Sequence record: MN106245.1
Length of the DNA stretch: 64,000 nucleotides
Origin: Klebsiella phage EI
Reading direction: 5' to 3' (one strand)
Positions 4-45,081 of this stretch are shown piece after piece. Within the stretch, counting starts at the first letter, position 1. Each line of letters opens with the position of its first letter. A model generated the notes under the pieces. That model saw nothing but the letters and a program-made list of their open reading frames with translations, made no database searches and was not told the origin of the DNA. A program made the translations under genes and the position numbers.

Positions 4-285
4 TTAACATTCCATAGATGAAGAGACCCAACCACCTGTTTCAAGGCTCGTGTAGTACTCGTGTTGATTAACGGTAGCCCATGAAGGATTACCTTGTTCA
101 GTGTACTGCTCAAGTTCTTTCTTTAAGAAACCTGGCGAATAATAAGTACCGCCCATACCGTAAGCAGGACTAATAGTGAATTCAGTATTATAGCGATCTG
201 CTACAACTTTAGCATGACGAATCGCATCATTAATAGCTTCAACCGCTTTAGCCATTTCTTCCTTAGGATTTCGTTTCATTAGCAC
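4..285 (-). CDS. small hypothetical protein; tandem paralog of the next gene (shares EAIKAV, GGTYY and WVSSS-MC motifs); reading frame runs off the window start
   Basis: ORF track; paralogous to 279-525/1294-1401; compact minus-strand gene packing. Confidence 0.45.
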   Translation of the reverse strand: MLMKRNPKEEMAKAVEAINDAIRHAKVVADRYNTEFTISPAYGMGGTYYSPGFLKKELEQYTEQGNPSWATVNQHEYYTSLETGGWVSSSMEC

Positions 286-525
286 ATCTCACTAGATGAA
301 ACCCATGCGCCTTCAACCGTTTTACCGTTTTCGTCAAGGTCTACATCATAGCACTGGCAATAGTATTCAAGACCGTAGTCTTCAGCACTAGTACCTTTAG
401 GGTAATATGTGCGGCCGTTACCATATTCACCTGTACTAAATGATACACCCATTTCGTCAGCGATAGCTTCTGCTTCAGCTTCGATCTGTTCAGTCAGGCC
501 CATGACAGCCTTAATAGCTTCTCGT
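279..525 (-). CDS. C-terminal part of a small hypothetical protein; its true N-terminus is at 1294-1401 and the two parts are separated by an artefactual insert
   Basis: 85-aa ORF whose apparent N-terminus (MC..) is read out of adapter sequence; 52-bp segment 474-525 is repeated at 1294-1345. Confidence 0.4.
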
Positions 526-526
526 A

Positions 527-595
527 AAGAGCACACGTCTGAACTCCAGTCACGAGTGGATATCTCGTATGCCGTCTTCTGCTTGAAAAAAAAAA
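527..595. other. Illumina TruSeq indexed adapter (AAGAGCACACGTCTGAACTCCAGTCAC-GAGTGGAT-ATCTCGTATGCCGTCTTCTGCTTG, index 23-like) followed by A10: sequencing/assembly contamination
   Basis: exact match to the well-known adapter sequence read directly in the window; poly(A) run 586-595. Confidence 0.9.
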
Positions 596-1293
596 GAATT
601 TAAATATTTCGAGGATATTTGCATATCCATAGAGGACATATATAAAACAAGAGAAACATATACACCGTTCTATGATGATAGAGCTGATTATAATACTAAT
701 TCAAAATCGTATTATGATTATGTTTCAAATCTATCAAAACTGATTGAAGTATTGGCACGTCGTATTTGGGAATATGACGGTGAATTAAAAAAACGTTTCA
801 AAAATTGGGACGATTTAATGAAAAAATTTCCAGATGACGCTAAAGAATTATTTAGAGGATGGTTAAACGACGGTACGATTGATAAAATCATTCATGACGA
901 GTTTACAAAATATTCTGCTGGACTAACTTCAGCTTTTGCTGTATTTAAAATTGCTGAAATGAAACAAATGAATGATTTTAAAGCAGAAGTTAAAGACTTA
1001 ATTAAAGATATTGACCGTTTCGTTAATGGGTTTGAATTAAATGAGCTTGAACCAAAGTTTGTGATGGGCTTTGGTGGTATTCGCAACGCAGTTAACCAAT
1101 CTATTAATATTGATAAAGAAACAAATCATATTTATACAACACAATCAGACTCACAATCTCCAGAGGGTTTTTGGATAAATAAATTAACCCCTAGCGGTGA
1201 CTTACTTTCAAGTATGCGTATAGTACAAGGTGGCCACGGTACAACAGTAGGTTTAGAAAGACAATCAAACGGTGAAATGAAAATACCATTTGT
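596..1293 (+). other. foreign low-GC fragment (partial ORF 752-1293 of unknown function) joined to the adapter; likely a chimeric read, not phage sequence
   Basis: abrupt drop in GC and change in codon usage relative to flanks; bounded by adapter on one side and the 52-bp duplicated junction (1294-1345) on the other; ORF 752-1357 reads through the junction. Confidence 0.6.
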
Positions 1294-1401
1294 TTCAGCT
1301 TCGATCTGTTCAGTCAGGCCCATGACAGCCTTAATAGCTTCTCGTGCTGATTTATAATCATTGTATTCAGGAACTTCTACTTCAAAAGTATATTTGCTCA
1401 T
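1294..1401 (-). CDS. N-terminal part (MSKYTFEVEVPEYNDYKSAREAIKAVMGLTEQIEAE) of the small gene whose C-terminal part is at 279-525
   Basis: identical 52-bp overlap with 474-525 reconstitutes a ~100-aa ORF once 526-1293 is removed. Confidence 0.45.
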
Positions 1402-4263: not shown

Positions 4264-4437
4264 TTATTCTACGATGTAATCTTCAACAACATAAGTGCTG
4301 TAAGAATTCATCTTGGACATTTCGTCAGCGTATTCGTTTGCAGCTTCTTCAGATGCAAAGATTTTCCTAGGCAGAGAATACTCATTATACCCGTACTCGA
4401 CGTTCCAATTTTCTTCTACTACGACGTAAACTTTCAT
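4264..4437 (-). CDS. hypothetical 57-aa protein (MKVYVVVEENWNVEYGYNEYS..)
   Basis: my own translation of the minus strand; below the 60-aa cutoff of the ORF track. Confidence 0.3.
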   Translation of the reverse strand: MKVYVVVEENWNVEYGYNEYSLPRKIFASEEAANEYADEMSKMNSYSTYVVEDYIVE

Positions 4438-4453
4438 ATTTTCCTCATAAATT

Positions 4454-4530
4454 TGGTGCCGGTTGACGGAATCGAACCGCCGACCTTCTCATTACAAGTG
4501 AGTTGCTCTACCTACTGAGCTAAACCGGCA
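4454..4530 (-). tRNA. tRNA-Thr (anticodon UGU), CCA encoded
   Basis: cloverleaf folded by hand: GCCGGTT..TAGCTCAGTAGGTAGAGC..anticodon loop CTTGTAA..GGTTCGATTCC..AACCGGCACCA. Confidence 0.8.
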
Positions 4531-4628
4531 TAAGACGGAAATAAGGATTCGAACCTTATGTAGTTGCACAGACGTATCTGCCGTTGAATTCCTCACTAAG
4601 TTTAAGCAACTATTCCCAGGTCTTAATT
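4531..4628 (-). ncRNA. tRNA-like element with a perfect T-arm (TAAGGTTCGAATCCTTA) but an acceptor/anticodon I could not resolve; possible degenerate tRNA or small stable RNA
   Basis: GGTTCGAATCC T-loop on the minus strand; sits between tRNA-Leu and tRNA-Thr where T4 has Gly/Pro/Ser. Confidence 0.3.
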
Positions 4629-4713
4629 TGGTGCACCGAGAGGGATTCGAACCCTCAATCCTTGCGGCGTAGCATTTTAAGTGCTATGTGTATACCAGTT
4701 CCACCATCGATGC
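4629..4713 (-). tRNA. tRNA-Leu (anticodon UAA), class II with long variable arm, CCA encoded
   Basis: GCATCGA acceptor pairs with TCGGTGC; anticodon loop CTTAAAA; T-loop GGTTCGAATCC. Confidence 0.8.
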
Positions 4714-4717
4714 GAAT

Positions 4718-4794
4718 TGGTCGAGACAGAAGGATTCGAACCTTCGACCTGCGGATTAGAAGTCCGCTGCTCTATCCAGCTGAGCTATGTCCCG
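4718..4794 (-). tRNA. tRNA-Arg (anticodon UCU), CCA encoded
   Basis: D-arm TAGCTCAGCTGGATAGAGC; anticodon stem GCGGA/TCCGC with loop CTTCTAA; GGTTCGAATCC. Confidence 0.85.
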
Positions 4795-4797
4795 AGA

Positions 4798-4925
4798 ATG
4801 TTCAGACAGGACTTGAACCTGTACGCTTAGGTCTGTTGCACCGGTTTCCGCCTTACTCACCTGGGTACCAACCAGGGTTTCAAACAAGCTATTCCGGTCG
4901 TGTCTACCGATTTCACCACTGAACA
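4798..4925 (-). ncRNA. ~128-nt tRNA-like stable RNA: perfect 7-bp acceptor stem (TGTTCAG/CTGAACA), Leu-type D-arm (GTGAAATCGGTAGACAC) and T-arm (ACAGGTTCAAGTCCTGT) with ~50 nt inserted in the anticodon region; analogous to T4 species 1/2 (rnaC/rnaD) RNAs
   Basis: hand-folded; location next to tRNA-Arg matches where T4 rnaC/rnaD lie. Confidence 0.5.
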
Positions 4926-4935
4926 TTTAATAAGT

Positions 4936-5172
4936 TTATTTAGTATACTCTATAAAAGCTAAAGCAAAATGTGGATCTACCTTAACAATTTTATGAGATA
5001 CCTTGAATCGATACGAATAAGAATCTACACCAATCCCATGACCTGTTTTGCCAGTTACTTTACCAACACGCATTTCACCATCTTGGCCCATACCAGAGGT
5101 TTTTACACCAAATAAGATATAATCGCCTTCAAAAACTGGAACACCATGTCGGTCTTTCATTAATTCTATCAT
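4936..5172 (-). CDS. hypothetical small protein
   Basis: ORF track. Confidence 0.4.
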   Translation of the reverse strand: MIELMKDRHGVPVFEGDYILFGVKTSGMGQDGEMRVGKVTGKTGHGIGVDSYSYRFKVSHKIVKVDPHFALAFIEYTK

Positions 5173-5621
5173 TTCGAAGCCTTAAGCATTTCACGTACTC
5201 GATAAAGATTGCTGCAGAACTCTTGTTCGGTCAGAACAGTTTCGTTCTTTTTAGACCGTCCCATAGAGTGAGTTAACGTAGCGTTCTGTGTGGCCAGGAT
5301 AGCTCTCTTGAATCCTTCATTAGTGGCCAATTGATTATATGCCCTTTCAATAAGAAGCGTATAGGCGTCACTCTGGCGTTGCATAGGGACGCCTTTCCAG
5401 TACAGAGTTTGCGTACGGAACCATTTCTTCTTTTTACCTTTGAACTTAGCTGCTTTACCAACTAAAGTGCAAACGTGTGCAGCCATTTCAGGAGAGCTGA
5501 ACTTCAACGACTGTAAGAAGCCTTCCATTGAAGCACATTTAACGCCGTCTATTTCAAAAGCATGCGGAGCAAAGTTGCTTAAAGCGCAACTAGGGTAACT
5601 TGACCCTGAGCCAATGTCCAT
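5169..5621 (-). CDS. NADAR (YbiA/DUF1768-like) domain protein; likely start at the internal Met MDIGSGSS
   Basis: motifs YPSCALSNFAPHAF.IDGVKCASMEGFLQSLKF fit the NADAR signature (LSNF..F..DG....S.EH.YQA.KF). Confidence 0.55.
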   Translation of the reverse strand: MDIGSGSSYPSCALSNFAPHAFEIDGVKCASMEGFLQSLKFSSPEMAAHVCTLVGKAAKFKGKKKKWFRTQTLYWKGVPMQRQSDAYTLLIERAYNQLATNEGFKRAILATQNATLTHSMGRSKKNETVLTEQEFCSNLYRVREMLKASK

Positions 5622-5884
5622 TAGATATCCTCTACGTGAATCATGATTGAGCGTCGACGAACAACGCATCCTTTAAGTTCTTCAGCAGCTTCAATTAGTA
5701 CACGGCCCGACGGAAGAATAAGCCCGTCAATTCGCTGTTGGGCCCGTGCTATATCCGTAAAACCATCTGCTTCAAGGAGCCCTGTGAATTCCCATCCTTC
5801 CCAGCATTCGTTATTAACGAATGAAGCATATGAGCCGAATTCTGGATTAAAAATTACGTAATCTTGTTGCATCTGTTGTTCCAA
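5621..5884 (-). CDS. hypothetical small protein
   Basis: ORF track. Confidence 0.4.
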   Translation of the reverse strand: MEQQMQQDYVIFNPEFGSYASFVNNECWEGWEFTGLLEADGFTDIARAQQRIDGLILPSGRVLIEAAEELKGCVVRRRSIMIHVEDI

Positions 5885-6189
5885 ATTTTAGTTAGACCAG
5901 CATGCTCGAAGGCACGCATACAAGAAAGACCGACTTTACCGTGTTCTTCCCACTCGATGATTCTATCATTATCTCTGAAAGCAAGACCTTTGGCTGGTTC
6001 AGCGTAAGGCTTCAATTCTTCAGGAACTTCATCCATAGAATCATAGACCACAGTAACGCCACCTTTACAACCTGCGATACCTACACCGCATTTGCATTCT
6101 AACACACAACAACTATAACTGATATACGTAAAAGGGAATCTTTCGCCACAGAAAGGGCAGGGGAGTAAATCTTCATTTAGAATGGTCAT
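5854..6189 (-). CDS. Cys-rich zinc-finger protein with Lar-family-like CPFCG motif (possible restriction alleviation)
   Basis: N-terminal LLPCPFCGERF plus further Cys pairs (CCVLECKCG..GCKGG). Confidence 0.4.
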   Translation of the reverse strand: MTILNEDLLPCPFCGERFPFTYISYSCCVLECKCGVGIAGCKGGVTVVYDSMDEVPEELKPYAEPAKGLAFRDNDRIIEWEEHGKVGLSCMRAFEHAGLTKIWNNRCNKIT

Positions 6190-6211
6190 AATATTTTTCT
6201 CAGTAGTTGAT

Positions 6212-6359
6212 TGGACGGAACGCCTGGACTCGAACCAGGTTATAGAACAATTGGCGTTGCACTACATTTTTATGAGGCCAACAAATCGTTTCCTCAACAG
6301 GCACGTCGCCAAACGTGTCATCCTGGAGAAAAGTCAATGTGTCCTCGAACCGATTAATT
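6212..6359 (-). ncRNA. tRNA-like region ending in a canonical T-arm+CCA (CCTGGTTCGAGTCCAGG-CGTTCCG-T-CCA) but without a pairing 5' acceptor; possible tRNA pseudogene(s) or processed small RNA
   Basis: T-loop and CCA found by eye; 148 nt, roughly the length of two tRNAs. Confidence 0.3.
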
Positions 6360-6436
6360 TGGTGACCCCATCTGGACTTGAACCAGAAACCTACCAGTTA
6401 TGAGCCGGGTGCTCTAACCAATTGAGCTATAGGGCC
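6360..6436 (-). tRNA. tRNA-Ile2-like (anticodon CAU, probably lysidine-modified), CCA encoded
   Basis: GGCCCTATAGCTCAATTGGTTAGAGCA..loop CTCATAA..GGTTCAAGTCCAG..GGGGTCACCA; closely resembles E. coli tRNA-Ile(LAU) and T4 tRNA-Ile. Confidence 0.75.
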
Positions 6437-6879
6437 AAAAGCTCTGTGCGATATTCTGCCAGAGCGTCATTATCCGGGTCTAAAGAGTACAAACAAGTAG
6501 GTTATTGTAGAACACAGCGTACTGTGGGAACAGCGCCTTCGGTCCCGGCATTTACTTACGGACCTCTAACTCATCTCTTTAGACTGCCATGTAATTATCT
6601 TTCGTAGGGATACGAATCTCTCAAGCTTTCCGGAAAGCTGAATAAGAGTTAATGGCTCTCATATACCCGTGCACAGATATAATCTTTGTTAACACATTAA
6701 CTGAATCGCTATACCTCGAAAGATAACTAGTACCTTCCTGCGCCGATTCAAGCTGTGATATACCTGGTTTCAATGAGGGACCTGTATAACAGGGAACGTC
6801 AGTTCGACGACTTGCGAGTGCGCATCCATCTGGGCTAGGCCTCAACAAGGTCATTACCAGTTTGGTCTCGCTTCTTATT
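6437..6879 (-). ncRNA. ~440-nt non-coding, highly structured block between two tRNAs (GNRA/UUCG-type hairpins; 16-bp perfect palindrome AGCTTTCCGGAAAGCT at 6624-6639); function unknown
   Basis: no convincing ORF (the two ORFs 6422-6607 and 6621-6956 overlap on opposite strands and lack starts/RBS); many short stem-loops; flanked by tRNAs on the same strand. Confidence 0.35.
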
Positions 6880-6962
6880 TGGCGGTTAGTGCAGGTATCG
6901 AACCTGCCTTGTCCTAAGACACGGATTAACAGTCCGTCGCTTCCCCTCTCAGCCAACTAACC
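6880..6962 (-). tRNA. class-II-shaped tRNA with anticodon GUU (Asn-type anticodon but a 13-nt variable arm), CCA encoded
   Basis: perfect acceptor GGTTAGT/ACTAACC; anticodon stem ACGGA/TCCGT with loop CTGTTAA; variable hairpin GTCTTAGGAC; T-arm GCAGGTTCGATACCTGC; G-CCA. Confidence 0.6.
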
Positions 6963-6969
6963 TAAATTA

Positions 6970-7042
6970 CTGGGATAACAGGACTCGAACCTGTGCATAC
7001 CGGAATCAAAATCCGGGGCCTTACCAACTTGGCTATATCCCA
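6970..7042 (-). tRNA. tRNA-Gln (anticodon UUG)
   Basis: TGGGATA/TATCCCA acceptor; loop TTTTGAT; GGTTCGAGTCC; starts with U like T4 tRNA-Gln; no CCA encoded. Confidence 0.8.
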
Positions 7043-7047
7043 TTTAA

Positions 7048-7125
7048 TGGAGGCGGAGGCAGGACTCGAACCTGCGCGTGTCGGGATATGAGCCCAACAT
7101 TCTGACCATCTGAAGTTACTCCGCA
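7048..7125 (-). tRNA. tRNA-Met (anticodon CAU) with initiator-like features, CCA encoded
   Basis: anticodon stem ends in three G-C pairs (TTGGG/CCCGA) next to loop CTCATAT, and the 1:72 position is mismatched (U:C); T-arm GCAGGTTCGAGTCCTGC. Confidence 0.65.
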
Positions 7126-35590: not shown

Positions 35591-37171
35591 TTGGAGAAAG
35601 TAATGAATTTCAACATTCTAAGTTTATTCGCTCCGTGGGAAAAACACGATGAGTCCGAATATAAACGACAAATTAGAGACGATTTAGAATCCATTACCGG
35701 ACCCAAATTCGATGATGGAGCTCATGAAGTAGAAACTAATGAGCAAGATGCCCCGTATAACGCGTTTAACCAAATGATGTTTGGTACTCAGTTGCCGGGA
35801 ATGAAAACTACTCGTGAGCTTATTGACACTTACCGTAGTTTGATGAACAACTATGAAGTAGATAACGCAGTCCAGGATATTATTTCAGATTCCATCGTTT
35901 ACGAAGATGGCCACGATGTAGTATCTTTAAATCTCGACTCTACCAACTTTAGTGCAAATATAAAAGAACGAATGATGGACGAATTCAAAGAAATTTTGAA
36001 CTGTCTTGATTTTGAAAGAAAAGGTAGTGACCATTTCCGCCGTTGGTATGTAGACTCGCGCATCTTCTTCCATAAAATTATCGATCTTAAGCGCCCTAGA
36101 GAGGGTATCAAAGAGCTTCGTCGTTTGGATCCACGTAACCTTCAGTATGTTCGTGAACTAATCACAAAAGAAGAAGCCGGTGTTAAAGTCGTTAAAGGCT
36201 ATAAAGAATACTTTATCTACGATACAGCTAACGAAAGCTACTGCGTAAATAACAAAGTTTATTCTGCCCACACTAAGATTAAAATTCCGCGGTCAGCTAT
36301 TACGTATGCTCATTCAGGTTTAGTTGATTGCTGCGGTAAAAGCATTATCGGTTATCTTCATCGTGCAGTTAAGCCTGCTAACCAGCTTAAACTCTTAGAA
36401 GATGCGTTAGTAATTTACCGTATCACACGTGCACCGGACCGCCGTATCTTTTATATTGATACCGGGAATATGCCTTCTCGTAAGGCGACAGCACATATGC
36501 AGCATATTATGAACACAATGAAAAATCGTGTTGTGTATGACGCTTCTACCGGTAAAATTAAAAACCAACAACACAATATGTCTATGACTGAAGACTATTG
36601 GTTGCAACGACGTGATGGTAAAGCAGTAACAGAAGTTGATACCTTACCGGGTGCCACTAATATGAGTGACATGGATGACGTACGTTATTTCCGTGCAGCT
36701 CTTTATATGGCTCTTCGTGTTCCGTTATCTCGTATGCCGTCTTCTGCTTGAAAAAAAAAAGTGCAGTTCGATGCTGGAACCGGTATCACTCGCGAAGAAT
36801 TAGATTTCCGTAAATTTATCCGAGACCTTCAACATAAGTTTGAAGAAATTATGCTTGATCCTCTGAAAACCAATCTTCTTTTGAAGAAAGTTATTACAGA
36901 AGATGAGTGGAATAAAGAGATAAATAATATTAAAGTTGTGTTCCACCAAGACTCATACTTCACAGAAATGAAGGATGCAGAAGTGATGGAACGTAGAATC
37001 AATATGCTAACCATGGCTGAACCGTTTATTGGGAAATACATTTCTCACCAATATGCCATGAAAACTTTCTTGCAGATGTCTGATGAACAGATTGATCAAG
37101 AAGCTAAGCAAATTGAATTAGAGTCTAAAGAGGCTCGTTTCCAAGACCCAGAAAATGTAGAGGACTTCTAA
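35591..37171 (+). CDS. 20: gp20 portal vertex protein (one gene; the reading frame is interrupted at 36749 by a stop introduced from adapter/poly(A) sequence)
   Basis: ORFs 35591-36751 (386 aa) and 36761-37171 (136 aa) are in the same frame and total 522 aa (T4 gp20 524); the junction contains ATCTCGTATGCCGTCTTCTGCTTG + A10. Confidence 0.85.
36727..36760. other. Illumina adapter 3' end (ATCTCGTATGCCGTCTTCTGCTTG) plus A10 embedded in gene 20: consensus corruption
   Basis: the same adapter/poly(A) signature as at 562-595. Confidence 0.85.
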
Positions 37172-37375
37172 ATGGAAGAATTAATGGAAGCAATTAAGGC
37201 TAACGACCTCGTTGCAGTACGTAAAGCCGTGGCTCCACTGCTGCAAGAACGGACGTCTAGTTTAATTGAAGAGCTTAAAGTCAAAATTGCAAGCTCAGTC
37301 ATGATCGAAGGCGAAGAACCTGAAGAAGATTCGGAGGATGACGCCGATGACGACGATGATGAGGACGACGAATAA
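37172..37375 (+). CDS. 67: gp67 prohead core protein (acidic C-terminus)
   Basis: 67 aa ending [20 protein letters not shown]; synteny. Confidence 0.7.
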
Positions 37376-42247: not shown

Positions 42248-43515
42248 TGAAAATAGATCGATTAATTCAAGAAAGTACTTTAACCTCTTCTAATCAGGCC
42301 GGGAGGCCTGATTTACTTTCGTACACCAAAGCAACTAATAAAAGAATCTTTAAGGCCCTCGTAGCAGAACAACGCACTCGTCAACCTGTTGCCGCTTTAT
42401 ATGGTATCAGAGTTCTGAACCCTGAAGATAATATGACTTATGTAGGCGGTGCTACATTCGGTGGTCTTATGGGCCCTGAATCCAGAGCCAATACTCCAGA
42501 ATTCGTCGGCCAGGCACCGTATAATAAAGGTGACTTATTCAAACACGAATCTGTCATCTTTAAAGCTCTTGAAGATAATCCTTTTGCTGGATCTACTGAA
42601 ACCAGTCATGACGAGCTTATTTCTGAAGCTATTGCGGCCGGAACTATCCGCATGGTTTCTGATGCCGCTCCAACTGCACAGTTTGAAGCTGGTCACCCTG
42701 AAATAGCTGAAGCCGGGTTCCGTGTCGATAAATGGCAAACTACGGTTAAATCCCGCAAACTTAAAACTTCTGTTACTGTTGAATTAGCCCAAGATCTAGA
42801 AGCTAATGGATTCGATGCCCCTGATTTCTTAGACGATATGCTAGGTATCCAGATGGCTGAAGAAGTAAACAAAGACATTCTTCAATCGTTGGTTACAGTT
42901 TCTAGTAGGTTTAAAGTTCACGGTGTGTCATCTAAAGGGGTTTTAGACCTTACAGATCCTAAATATGATAACGCCCAGGATCGTGCACGTACGCTGTATT
43001 ACTACATGTGCGAGATGAATTCTGCCGTCCAACGCAATACTTCGTTCGCTGGGACATATGCCGCAGCTAGTTCTCGCTGTGCGGCTATTTTAGCTGCTTC
43101 AGGCTGGGTTGAAAAGCGAGATGACGGTGATGAGTTAGCCTACGGCTATCTGAAGAATGGTCTGCCTCTTTACGCGGATATGAATACGCCGGCAGAATAT
43201 GTTATTGTTGGTGTTAATGCAGATATGGGTGAAGGCCAGACGGTGGCATCATTATATTATGCGCCTTATACTGAAGGTATGGATGTAGAAGATGATATTG
43301 ATCAAATGGGCGAATTCAAGATAGTTGTCGACCCTGATTCTTTACAGCCTACTATTTCTTTACTCGCACGGTATGCTTTGTCTGCTAATCCGTACACTGT
43401 TGCTAAAGATGAAAAAGAAGCTCGAATCATCGATGGTTCTGATATGGATAAGATGGCTGGTCAGAGTCTATTAAGTTCTTACCTCGGCGTTAAGTTACCA
43501 CCGCTCGAGAAATAA
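42247..43515 (+). CDS. gp24 head vertex protein, copy 2 (divergent tandem paralog)
   Basis: 422 aa; ~55-60% identical to copy 1 by eye; shared C-terminal block DPDSLQPTISL..RYALSANPYTVAKDEKEAR. Confidence 0.8.
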   Translation: MKIDRLIQESTLTSSNQAGRPDLLSYTKATNKRIFKALVAEQRTRQPVAALYGIRVLNPEDNMTYVGGATFGGLMGPESRANTPEFVGQAPYNKGDLFKHESVIFKALEDNPFAGSTETSHDELISEAIAAGTIRMVSDAAPTAQFEAGHPEIAEAGFRVDKWQTTVKSRKLKTSVTVELAQDLEANGFDAPDFLDDMLGIQMAEEVNKDILQSLVTVSSRFKVHGVSSKGVLDLTDPKYDNAQDRARTLYYYMCEMNSAVQRNTSFAGTYAAASSRCAAILAASGWVEKRDDGDELAYGYLKNGLPLYADMNTPAEYVIVGVNADMGEGQTVASLYYAPYTEGMDVEDDIDQMGEFKIVVDPDSLQPTISLLARYALSANPYTVAKDEKEARIIDGSDMDKMAGQSLLSSYLGVKLPPLEK

Positions 43516-43519
43516 AAAT

Positions 43520-43537
43520 GGGAGCCATAAGGCTCCC
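43520..43537. terminator. hairpin GGGAGCCATAAGGCTCCC, bidirectional between 24 copy 2 (+) and the DprA-like gene (-)
   Basis: perfect stem. Confidence 0.5.
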
Positions 43538-44083
43538 TTATAAATTAAAAATATCAAACTTTGGCCTATATTTGTCTTCGAATTTTTTAAATACTTCTGA
43601 ATTGTTCAGATTAATACATTTAATACCATACTTTTTAGCTATATCAACTGCAACTCTAGTTCCGCCTTGAACTCTGCCATTTCTAACCGGGGCCCAGTAT
43701 AAAACTAAATCCACAGGGTTTTGACATGATAATCCAAAAACTTGACATGCATTACGAGCAAACAACTTTCTAACTATATCTGAGCAATTTTCCCAGTACG
43801 AGGTAACTGATTGGGCTATTCTATAACTAGCTGTTTGAACGTCCACTGGTAAGTTTTCAAAACTTACAACCCCTAAGCCAACAAAATGGCCACAGAACCC
43901 GTTGTAAGGTATTATCCTCAGAGATTTAGACCTATCATATTTTGCCAGCCAAGCTTCATCTGAACCAGGCGCTCCGCCACTATAAGCTAAATATCCTTTA
44001 TTTGAAAAGTTTTCACCTATAGATGTCATCAAATCAAGAACTTTGCGGGGCGCCTTTCGAGAACCAATCAGCGCCACTCTCAT
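43538..44083 (-). CDS. DprA/Smf-like Rossmann-fold (SLOG superfamily) protein
   Basis: 181 aa; ALIGSRKAPRKVLDLM...AYSGGAPGSDEAW matches the DprA core pattern (GSR..p..g...SGlArGiD.aaH). Confidence 0.5.
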   Translation of the reverse strand: MRVALIGSRKAPRKVLDLMTSIGENFSNKGYLAYSGGAPGSDEAWLAKYDRSKSLRIIPYNGFCGHFVGLGVVSFENLPVDVQTASYRIAQSVTSYWENCSDIVRKLFARNACQVFGLSCQNPVDLVLYWAPVRNGRVQGGTRVAVDIAKKYGIKCINLNNSEVFKKFEDKYRPKFDIFNL

Positions 44084-45081
44084 TAATTACTTACCAATTC
44101 AAACCACGCCGGACGAAGCACGTCTTGTATCAGCTTAGTAATTTCTTTCTTCACGATATCAGGCTGTTCTGCTTGAATGACTTCAAGACCTTCTCGTTCA
44201 GCTTCAATAAGGATATCTTGAACTGTTAAGCCCATAACCTTTCCAAAGTCTTTAGGACCAACCTTACCGATCTTACTAATAACGTTGTTCACACGCTGAA
44301 TAGTAACGTATTCAGAGAATTTCTGCAGAACGTCTTGGTCAATTTCACTCAGAACAGCTTTAGGCTTAATAGGCTTATCAGATTTAGCTTTTTCGCTGAA
44401 CTTAGAGTTCTTACACTTGATAGCCACACGACTGCCGTTAGCCAGGAACCGTGGATAATTAGGTTTCAGTACATAGCCTTCAGCCGTATTATCGGTGGCT
44501 TCTTCAGCCGGCCAGATGCGGGTATTAGCATTTCTGAGGTCTACTTCTGCGGCTTCGTTGTAACGATTAACGTTAATCTGGAACTCATTAGGCAGTTTAA
44601 TCAGTTCATCAAATGAACCACGACCCATCAGAGGTGCAACCTTGAAACCAAAGGTGCAACACATCTGTTCCATCATAAAATCATCTACAAATTGATGAGT
44701 ACCTTTATCGGTTTTAACCAAGATATCAAAGACATAGAAATCTTTCTCGCCGTAATCAACACCTTTCTGGATACCGCCACCAGCGAATTCACCGAAGATC
44801 TGCATACTAGAGCCTTCTTTAATTGTATTTTGTACGGCTTTAATAGAGTCGTTATATTTCTTTAAAATAACAGTGTACCCAAAGAAGTCTTCAGCTGGAA
44901 GAATAGGACCTGTGCGCTTCGCGCATGTGACTGCATCACGTTCAATGATAATAGAAAAGTTGGTACCATGAATCTTTTCACGTGCACACCAGCCTTCAGT
45001 TACATCATAGCCGTGGTGTCGAATCTTTTCAATAAATTTATTATTGTAGTGGTTCTCAAGACTAGAATATTTCTCAAACAC
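44083..45081 (-). CDS. rnlB: RNA ligase 2
   Basis: 332 aa; N-terminus [19 protein letters not shown] and the KIHGTN ligase motif I closely match T4 Rnl2. Confidence 0.9.

Follow-up and report, generated by a model that had tools for sequence, protein, structure and literature searches.

Is the block at positions 526-1345 of the window (the whole 64,000-nucleotide stretch of DNA analysed here) part of a phage genome, or is it a product of sequencing and assembly? The preliminary description took it for a chimeric read or contig mis-join, and our findings lead to the same view: a synthetic oligonucleotide, a fragment internal to a foreign gene, the absence of the block from relatives and the repair of a native gene upon its removal all agree. 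We are nearly certain that 526-1345 is a sequencing and assembly artefact within an otherwise ordinary T4-like Klebsiella phage (Marfavirus) genome. The block is not a real genomic feature and has no biological meaning. Being an artefact, it should be deleted and left unannotated.

Composition of the block at 526-1345

Nucleotide comparison placed the backbone in the genus Marfavirus, among the T4-like Klebsiella phages. Along its whole length the window aligns collinearly with PWKp16 and Marfa, at 90-98% identity (92-99% in a comparison with PWKp16, Marfa and Kpn BM7). Its first 2400 nt matched 23 Klebsiella phage records, Kpn BM7, PWKp16, F48 and Marfa among them, with identities of up to 99.1%. 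The stretches without a match in any relative were the artefacts alone. Positions 4280-4449 and 43515-44092, unmatched in PWKp16 and Marfa, were considered as other foreign pieces and rejected, as they are native to other Klebsiella T4-like phages. Within the block (hereafter site 1), the order is a TruSeq Index-23 adapter, poly(A), a 690-nt fragment of a Staphylococcus podophage tail gene, eight orphan bases and a second copy of 52 native nucleotides. The features of this site are:

279-525, minus strand: 3' (C-terminal) part of a split 100-aa backbone gene, homologue of PWKp16_00178 and Marfa gp129
474-525, no strand: left copy of an exact 52-nt direct repeat, native backbone, with a single occurrence in PWKp16
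526, plus strand: single A between the native sequence and the adapter, from reading of the sequence; relatives have G
527-585, plus strand: Illumina TruSeq indexed adapter, Index 23, without its first 6 nt (GATCGG); exact match, equal to bases 7-65 of the published oligo
527-553, plus strand: read-2 primer site of the adapter
554-561, plus strand: index GAGTGGAT of the adapter
562-585, plus strand: P7 tail of the adapter
586-595, plus strand: A10, read as base-calling run-off beyond a library molecule's end; other contaminated records likewise have poly(A) after the adapter
596-1285, plus strand: contaminant, an internal fragment (codons 7-236 of 646) of a Staphylococcus Rosenblumvirus minor tail protein gene; 97% nucleotide and 96% amino acid identity
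1286-1293, no strand: eight orphan bases CCATTTGT at the Staphylococcus-to-Klebsiella junction, matching neither source
1294-1345, no strand: right copy of the 52-nt direct repeat, exactly equal to 474-525
1346-1401, minus strand: 5' (N-terminal) part of the split 100-aa backbone gene

A pattern search of the window for AAGAGCACACGTCTGAACTCCAGTCAC-N8-ATCTCGTATGCCGTCTTCTGCTTG found 527-585, which reads AAGAGCACACGTCTGAACTCCAGTCAC GAGTGGAT ATCTCGTATGCCGTCTTCTGCTTG, with zero mismatches. There was no second match in the window even with up to three mismatches allowed, and 100 dinucleotide shuffles yielded none by chance. The "TruSeq Adapter, Index 23", printed as GATCGGAAGAGCACACGTCTGAACTCCAGTCACGAGTGGATATCTCGTATGCCGTCTTCTGCTTG in a published table (PMC10000876), consists of GATCGGAAGAGCACACGTCTGAACTCCAGTCAC, GAGTGGAT and ATCTCGTATGCCGTCTTCTGCTTG; the 59 nt of 527-585 are identical to its bases 7-65, so that only the first 6 nt are lacking. 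The indexed TruSeq adapter of the preliminary description is thus present exactly, with the first GATCGG missing, and the match to the published oligo shows that its assignment to index 23 was right. The A10 that it placed at 586-595 follows the adapter as a homopolymer run-off would. The single A at 526 may be the A-tail base of the library; its origin is ambiguous.

The run of As is exactly 10 long at both sites in the window (the second is described below), and runs of A8, A11, A13 and A19 are found in other records. An adapter-dimer read of 75 nt (33+8+24+10), with A10 as its last part, was considered as the source and rejected, as the adapter here is without GATCGG, the Marfa reads are 250 nt long and the runs in other records range from A8 to A19.

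For the segment at 596-1293, the preliminary description expected a search to return a low-GC bacterium or phage, or a spike-in; 74 records matched, and all were Staphylococcus phages. The best matches to 596-1285 were Rosenblumvirus podophages of ~17.5 kb (SA1-CTA1, SA46-CL1 and others), with 97% identity over 690 nt within a gene annotated as "minor tail protein". At the protein level, identity was 96% over 230 aa, covering residues 7-236 of the 646-aa QEG07413.1. The fragment is therefore highly similar to an annotated Rosenblumvirus minor tail protein and is not a complete gene with its own start and stop, codons 1-6 and 237-646 being missing. Its GC content of 0.317 is below that of every 690-nt window elsewhere (minimum 0.339, median 0.409). 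Of the 12 mismatches private to it, eight cluster at 610-637, within its first 42 nt, as do five of its nine amino acid changes within the first 14 residues. Outside this error-rich start the fragment is ~98% identical to its best database match, compared with 97% overall.

The extent of the foreign segment required revision. Its low GC and foreign origin stood, the source being a Staphylococcus phage, but homology ends at 1285 and not at 1293: all five aligned Staphylococcus relatives diverge past 1285, and native backbone identity resumes at 1294, with 1286-1293 matching neither source. Likewise, the open reading frame (ORF) placed at 752-1293 exists but runs from 752 to 1357, into the right repeat copy, and encodes 201 aa. 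The ORFs within 526-1293 are restricted to the truncated tail-gene frame and short chance ORFs.

The 52 nt of 474-525 are repeated exactly at 1294-1345, as described before; the repeat extends to 55 nt with one mismatch and to 63 nt at 94% identity. The prediction that removal of 526-1345 restores a minus-strand gene of ~100 aa was borne out: deletion joins 1401..1346 to 525..279 and yields a 303-nt gene whose 100-aa product is 100% identical to PWKp16_00178 and one residue off Marfa gp129. The clean, insert-free junction reads ...GCTTCTCGT followed directly by GCTGATTT.

No convincing microhomology was found at junctions 525/526 and 1285/1294, where only trivial bases are shared. A homology-driven join at 525/526 was considered by eye, with native 467-475 sharing CTTCTGCTT with the P7 tail and 520-525 sharing TCTCGT, and rejected as the order is wrong. 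Homology at the boundary between poly(A) and the Staphylococcus fragment was also rejected, the resemblance of AAAATGAATTT to AAAAAGAATTT being weak and A-rich only.

No phage record covered the first 2400 nt in full. In each match listed (20 of the 23 Klebsiella records) this query aligned as two pieces spanning 1580 nt, that is, 2400 minus 820. Eight further contigs, chosen by exact encoding of the neighbouring 189-aa protein (two from NCBI, five Logan SRA assemblies and one ENA metagenome), were all collinear across the cleaned junction; five contained the exact 60-nt intact junction and none of the eight contained the adapter. Seven of them have the gene order 189, 121, 100 and 91 aa, and L022 is the exception, with the 100-aa gene called as two of 30 + 87 aa. 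The block is thus absent from independently sequenced relatives (23 records and eight contigs). An adapter-like string in such relatives, which would have spoken against an artefact according to the preliminary description, was not found at site 1. In addition, the left junction string was absent from IMG/VR and JGI metagenomes and the right junction string from GTDB genomes.

A second adapter remnant in the portal gene

A 12-mer adapter screen and a homopolymer scan of the window flagged a second site, at 36727-36760. The whole-window screen, which used TruSeq, Nextera, P5 and PhiX sequences, found nothing beyond the two adapter sites, and only 586-595 and 36751-36760 have runs of at least nine A or T. 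The features of this site are:

35603-37171, plus strand: gene for the portal protein, homologous to T4 gp20; its translation is collinear with that of PWKp16 (522 aa) and broken only by an adapter-derived stop
36726-36738, plus strand: native portal sequence TATCTCGTATGCC, identical to the final base of the index followed by nt 1-12 of the P7 tail; present in the PWKp16 portal gene and 21 Marfavirus records
36739-36760, plus strand: second artefact, in which the final 12 nt of the P7 tail (GTCTTCTGCTTG) and A10 stand in place of native AGACCTTAATAATCAAGGCGGT; 22 nt, in register

The window reads ...CGTGTTCCGTT ATCTCGTATGCC GTCTTCTGCTTG AAAAAAAAAA GTGCAGTTCG... at this site, and PWKp16 reads ...CCATT ATCTCGTATGCC AGACCTTAATAATCAAGGCGGT GTACAGTTTG.... 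Since the sequence is native in PWKp16, the gene and the indexed adapter have the 13 nt of TATCTCGTATGCC in common by coincidence. Twelve of them are the beginning of the P7 tail, ATCTCGTATGCC, which is complementary to the 3' terminus of the P7 primer (...GGCATACGAGAT). The overwrite makes a TGA at 36749-36751, which turns PDLNNQGG into PSSA*KKK (asterisk, stop) and splits the essential portal ORF into two, 35591-36751 and 36761-37171. A native 66-nt stretch that includes the 22 nt is kept in the annotated portal gene of 21 Marfavirus records. Positions 36739-36760 are to be corrected from the reads; relatives read AGACCTTAATAATCAAGGCGGT there. Neither the truncated 382-aa portal product nor the chimeric 201-aa ORF of site 1 is on record.

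The same portal site is altered in Klebsiella phage Marfa (MN044033, which is RefSeq NC_048798), the RefSeq type genome of the genus. It carries the P7 tail plus A11 at 99162-99208 with length preserved, and in its record the ribosome-binding sites of genes 181 and 183 have no portal CDS listed between them. The P7 tail of this relative sits elsewhere than site 1, is itself an artefact and makes a stop; 21 other relatives are native. According to the Marfa paper, its data, under accession SRR8869231, came from a TruSeq Nano library sequenced on a MiSeq (2x250), with FASTX trimming and assembly in SPAdes 3.5.0. A comparable overwrite, at a look-alike site unrelated to that of the portal gene, is found in Vibrio phage D65 (OZ195765, 30016-30047) and 10 sibling records, which carry the P7 tail plus A8 without a change in length. 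At this position the relative 219E41.2 has ATCTCGGATGCCGTCCACGCGTTTCTGTTCAA, and the native bases match the beginning of the P7 tail at 15/16 positions.

Three points go beyond the preliminary description: what the contaminant is, the eight orphan bases and the second adapter remnant at 36739-36760.

Possible origins of the two sites

From the product sequence only, we infer the following route to 526-1345. The TruSeq index-23 library of the Klebsiella phage would also have held Staphylococcus podophage DNA, either because phages were pooled per index or through cross-contamination. A short molecule, with an insert ending in Klebsiella 474-525, would have been read through into the 5'-truncated adapter and then off its end. 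On four-colour Illumina instruments, run-off past the end of a molecule is called as As. Such a read may have slipped past adapter trimming because the usual (prefix) trimming key AGATCGGAAGAGC is mostly missing. The 52 nt would then form a node in the assembly graph with two entries and two exits. It could be reached from the true upstream sequence or, by way of a chimeric molecule with eight filler bases, from Staphylococcus sequence, and left for the true downstream sequence or the adapter. An assembler path could have come in from the Staphylococcus tip, made one full circuit of the circularly permuted genome, passed through the 52 nt again and left via the adapter tip. The resulting linear contig would have dirty ends and the 52 nt at each end of the genome. 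If it was closed and re-opened elsewhere without trimming, the dirty ends would have become internal in the order observed, and the boundary between A10 and the Staphylococcus fragment (595/596) would be the old end-to-start joint. As for the source of the second phage, the Marfa paper refers to reads "in the index", wording that is consistent with several phages per index, and from it we infer the pooling practice.

Several observations bear on this route. The cluster of mismatches in the first 42 nt of the Staphylococcus fragment fits a poorly supported contig end. There is one flank-repeat site per genome in the window and in the Escherichia phages vB_EcoM_G4507 (MK327946) and vB_EcoM_G10400 (MK327937), which fits closure of a contig. 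Both Escherichia phages have native flank, a full Nextera adapter, poly(A) and a 55-nt flank repeat, with an identical spacing of 177 nt. Against the route counts the repeat of 52 nt (55 with one mismatch), which, unlike that of G10400, is not a standard k-mer length. A reading of the repeat as a k=55 overlap is suggestive given G10400 but not established, as only 52 nt are exact and 55 nt need one mismatch.

A hybrid read could also have given rise to site 1, although we find this somewhat unlikely. The read would pass from Klebsiella 474-525 through the adapter and A10 into Staphylococcus sequence of a second template (same cluster or one next to it), and tip joining or scaffolding by the assembler would then have duplicated the shared node without any manual closure. 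The error-rich first 42 nt of the Staphylococcus part do adjoin the A run, and at the portal and Vibrio sites the native sequence resumes in register, which a mixed cluster would produce. The occurrence of A10 at both sites in the window speaks for it too, as do the exactly k-like 55-nt repeat and identical 177-nt spacing in G10400 and G4507. However, it leaves unaccounted for the rejoining of the Staphylococcus sequence to the backbone exactly at 474, and the single site per genome in the window, G4507 and G10400 fits one point of contig closure better.

At the portal site, P7 mispriming or mis-piled adapter reads may have overwritten 22 nt with the P7 tail and A10. Native sequence kept upstream with the P7 tail downstream is the orientation that mispriming by the P7 primer would give; an in-silico pile-up of adapter reads would give the same orientation. 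We propose, tentatively and with more doubt than confidence, that the P7 primer or the flow-cell P7 lawn misprimes on native 12-16-nt look-alikes of ATCTCGTATGCC, generating hybrid reads in which the P7 tail and ~10 As are followed by an in-register return. The error would then be physical and repeatable rather than just a slip of the assembler. Corruption could in that case be predicted, at the look-alike, for any genome that has one, and false stops or residues would already be present in deposited genomes, including the Marfa RefSeq record and 11 Vibrio phage records.

It is unlikely that the portal remnant at 36739-36760 was instead inherited from the Marfa reference (NC_048798) via reference-guided assembly, gap filling or polishing. 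In favour of inheritance, Marfa is the RefSeq type genome of the genus and has the same P7 tail at the same site, and both overwrites preserve length. Yet four flank differences within ~45 nt and the differing A run (A10+G in the window versus A11 in Marfa) make a recurrent origin likelier than inheritance. Furthermore, the window and Marfa are only ~94-95% identical, at site 1 the window carries a TruSeq adapter of its own, and overwrites of this kind do arise where native sequence resembles P7, as the Vibrio phages show.

The very clean make-up of the window's artefacts, with an exact adapter, an exact 52-nt repeat and A10 twice, could point to a sequence that was deliberately built or planted (an engineered phage, a synthetic spike or an edited test record). 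We consider this very improbable, since both artefact types are found in independent public records of other laboratories, and the truncation of the adapter, the 8 orphan nt and the many errors at one end of the fragment have the look of accidents.

Finally, a genuine insertion, in which recombination or a mobile element brought in Staphylococcus phage DNA and duplicated a 52-bp target, is suggested by the flanking direct repeat and the open reading frame through the insert but can be dismissed with hardly any reservation: the insert starts with a 59-nt synthetic Illumina oligonucleotide with a catalogue index and poly(A), which cannot be natural; the Staphylococcus piece is a headless, tailless gene fragment; no transposase, integrase, homing endonuclease, other mobility gene or terminal inverted repeats were found at the insert; a conserved gene is disrupted; the block is absent in the 31 relatives examined; its junctions had no second occurrence in three public collections; and the hosts belong to a Gram-negative versus a Gram-positive genus.

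Related artefacts in other public records

The practical value of these findings lies in data hygiene; their biological interest is low. If left in place, the two sites could lead annotators to report a spurious 201-aa "tail-like" ORF at 752-1357, a split 100-aa gene and a broken portal in a viable phage. The Staphylococcus fragment could also mislead screens for host prediction or horizontal transfer into reporting a cross-phylum exchange. Since artefacts of both types also turn up in public genomes of other phages, a RefSeq type genome among them, systematic screening for internal adapter remnants and P7 look-alikes is worthwhile.

NCBI VecScreen/UniVec and FCS-adaptor screen deposited assemblies for contamination with Illumina adapters. 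The exact 24-nt P7 tail occurs in ~60 of 50,697 phage records, in most of them within a few dozen bases of the record end. Site 1 resembles such contamination in having an exact TruSeq oligo followed by run-off poly(A). It differs in being internal and not at a record end, in lacking the first 6 nt and in being coupled to a 690-nt contaminant from another phage. Contamination in pooled libraries or across samples offers a second parallel, as a fragment of an unrelated Rosenblumvirus (Staphylococcus host) lies inside a Klebsiella phage contig; here, the best database match for the fragment is only 97% identical.

The closest parallels to site 1 in structure are G10400 and G4507, in which an adapter and poly(A) likewise lie within a flank repeat at one site per T4-like genome and a gene is split (gp5-like in G4507). 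In contrast to the window, these have Nextera adapters, a 55-nt k-mer-like repeat and a 122-nt insert, with no foreign phage fragment. Bacillus phage Tomato has a similar structure that splits its DNA polymerase gene. Marfa and the Vibrio D65 group are instead like the portal site: 12-16 native nucleotides resemble ATCTCGTATGCCGTC, and the rest of the P7 tail plus A8-A11 then replace native bases. Their overwrites differ from site 1, which is an insertion, and the lengths of their A runs differ. The same artefacts thus recur in other public records, and each of the window's two sites falls into a class of artefact that is met with repeatedly.

Adapter remnant in the portal gene

Beyond the composite insert at 526-1345, we found a second adapter remnant in the window, inside the gene for the portal protein, a homologue of T4 gp20.

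35603-37171, portal gene
36726-36760, second adapter remnant, within the portal gene

Directly before the overwritten bases lies a native 13-nt adapter look-alike, and 22 native nt are replaced in register by 12 nt of the P7 tail (the end of the TruSeq indexed adapter) and A10. This overwrite gives rise to a TGA at 36749-36751, and the portal gene is split. Klebsiella phage Marfa, the RefSeq type genome, carries the P7 tail followed by A11 at the identical portal site (MN044033.1/NC_048798.1 99162-99208, corresponding to 37162-37208 of stretch L005), where its record lacks an annotated portal CDS. The site is native in 21 other Marfavirus records.

Native and mosaic stretches

Two stretches of the window, 4280-4449 and 43515-44092, have no counterpart in the relatives PWKp16 or Marfa. 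Both occur in other Klebsiella T4-like phages (pzk-kv8, 91%; HMGUkp2, 94%, annotated as DprA-like); they are not contamination but ordinary mosaic variation. Seven clustered tRNA genes (Thr, Leu, Arg, Met, Asn, Gln, Met) lie at 4454-7125 on the minus strand; the cluster is also present in Marfa and PWKp16. The homologue of the 100-aa gene split by the composite insert is called as 30 + 87 aa in an independent contig, Logan SRR32595514_264 (4925-5228 of stretch L022), probably due to a frameshift of that assembly.

Adapter sequences in other phage records

In the phage collection as a whole, the exact 24-nt P7 tail was found in ~60 of 50,697 records, in most cases no more than a few dozen bases from a record end. 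An in-register replacement of native sequence by P7 tail and A8, within an annotated CDS, was found in a Vibrio phage and is also present in 10 sibling records; the start of the tail is identical to the native site (MW824385.1, stretch L023) at 15 of 16 positions. Internal Nextera adapter with poly(A) was found in E. coli phages G4507 and G10400 and in Bacillus phage Tomato, enclosed by direct repeats of native flank (55, 55 and at least 102 nt, respectively), with the insert splitting a gp5-like gene in G4507 and the DNA polymerase gene in Tomato.

Adapter regions in other phage records
OZ195765.1 30016-30047 (201-232 of stretch L014), Vibrio phage, P7 tail and A8
MK327946.1 76494-76917 (stretch L011), G4507
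MK327937.1 109860-110283 (stretch L012), G10400
MT584805.1 107320-107743 (stretch L013), Tomato
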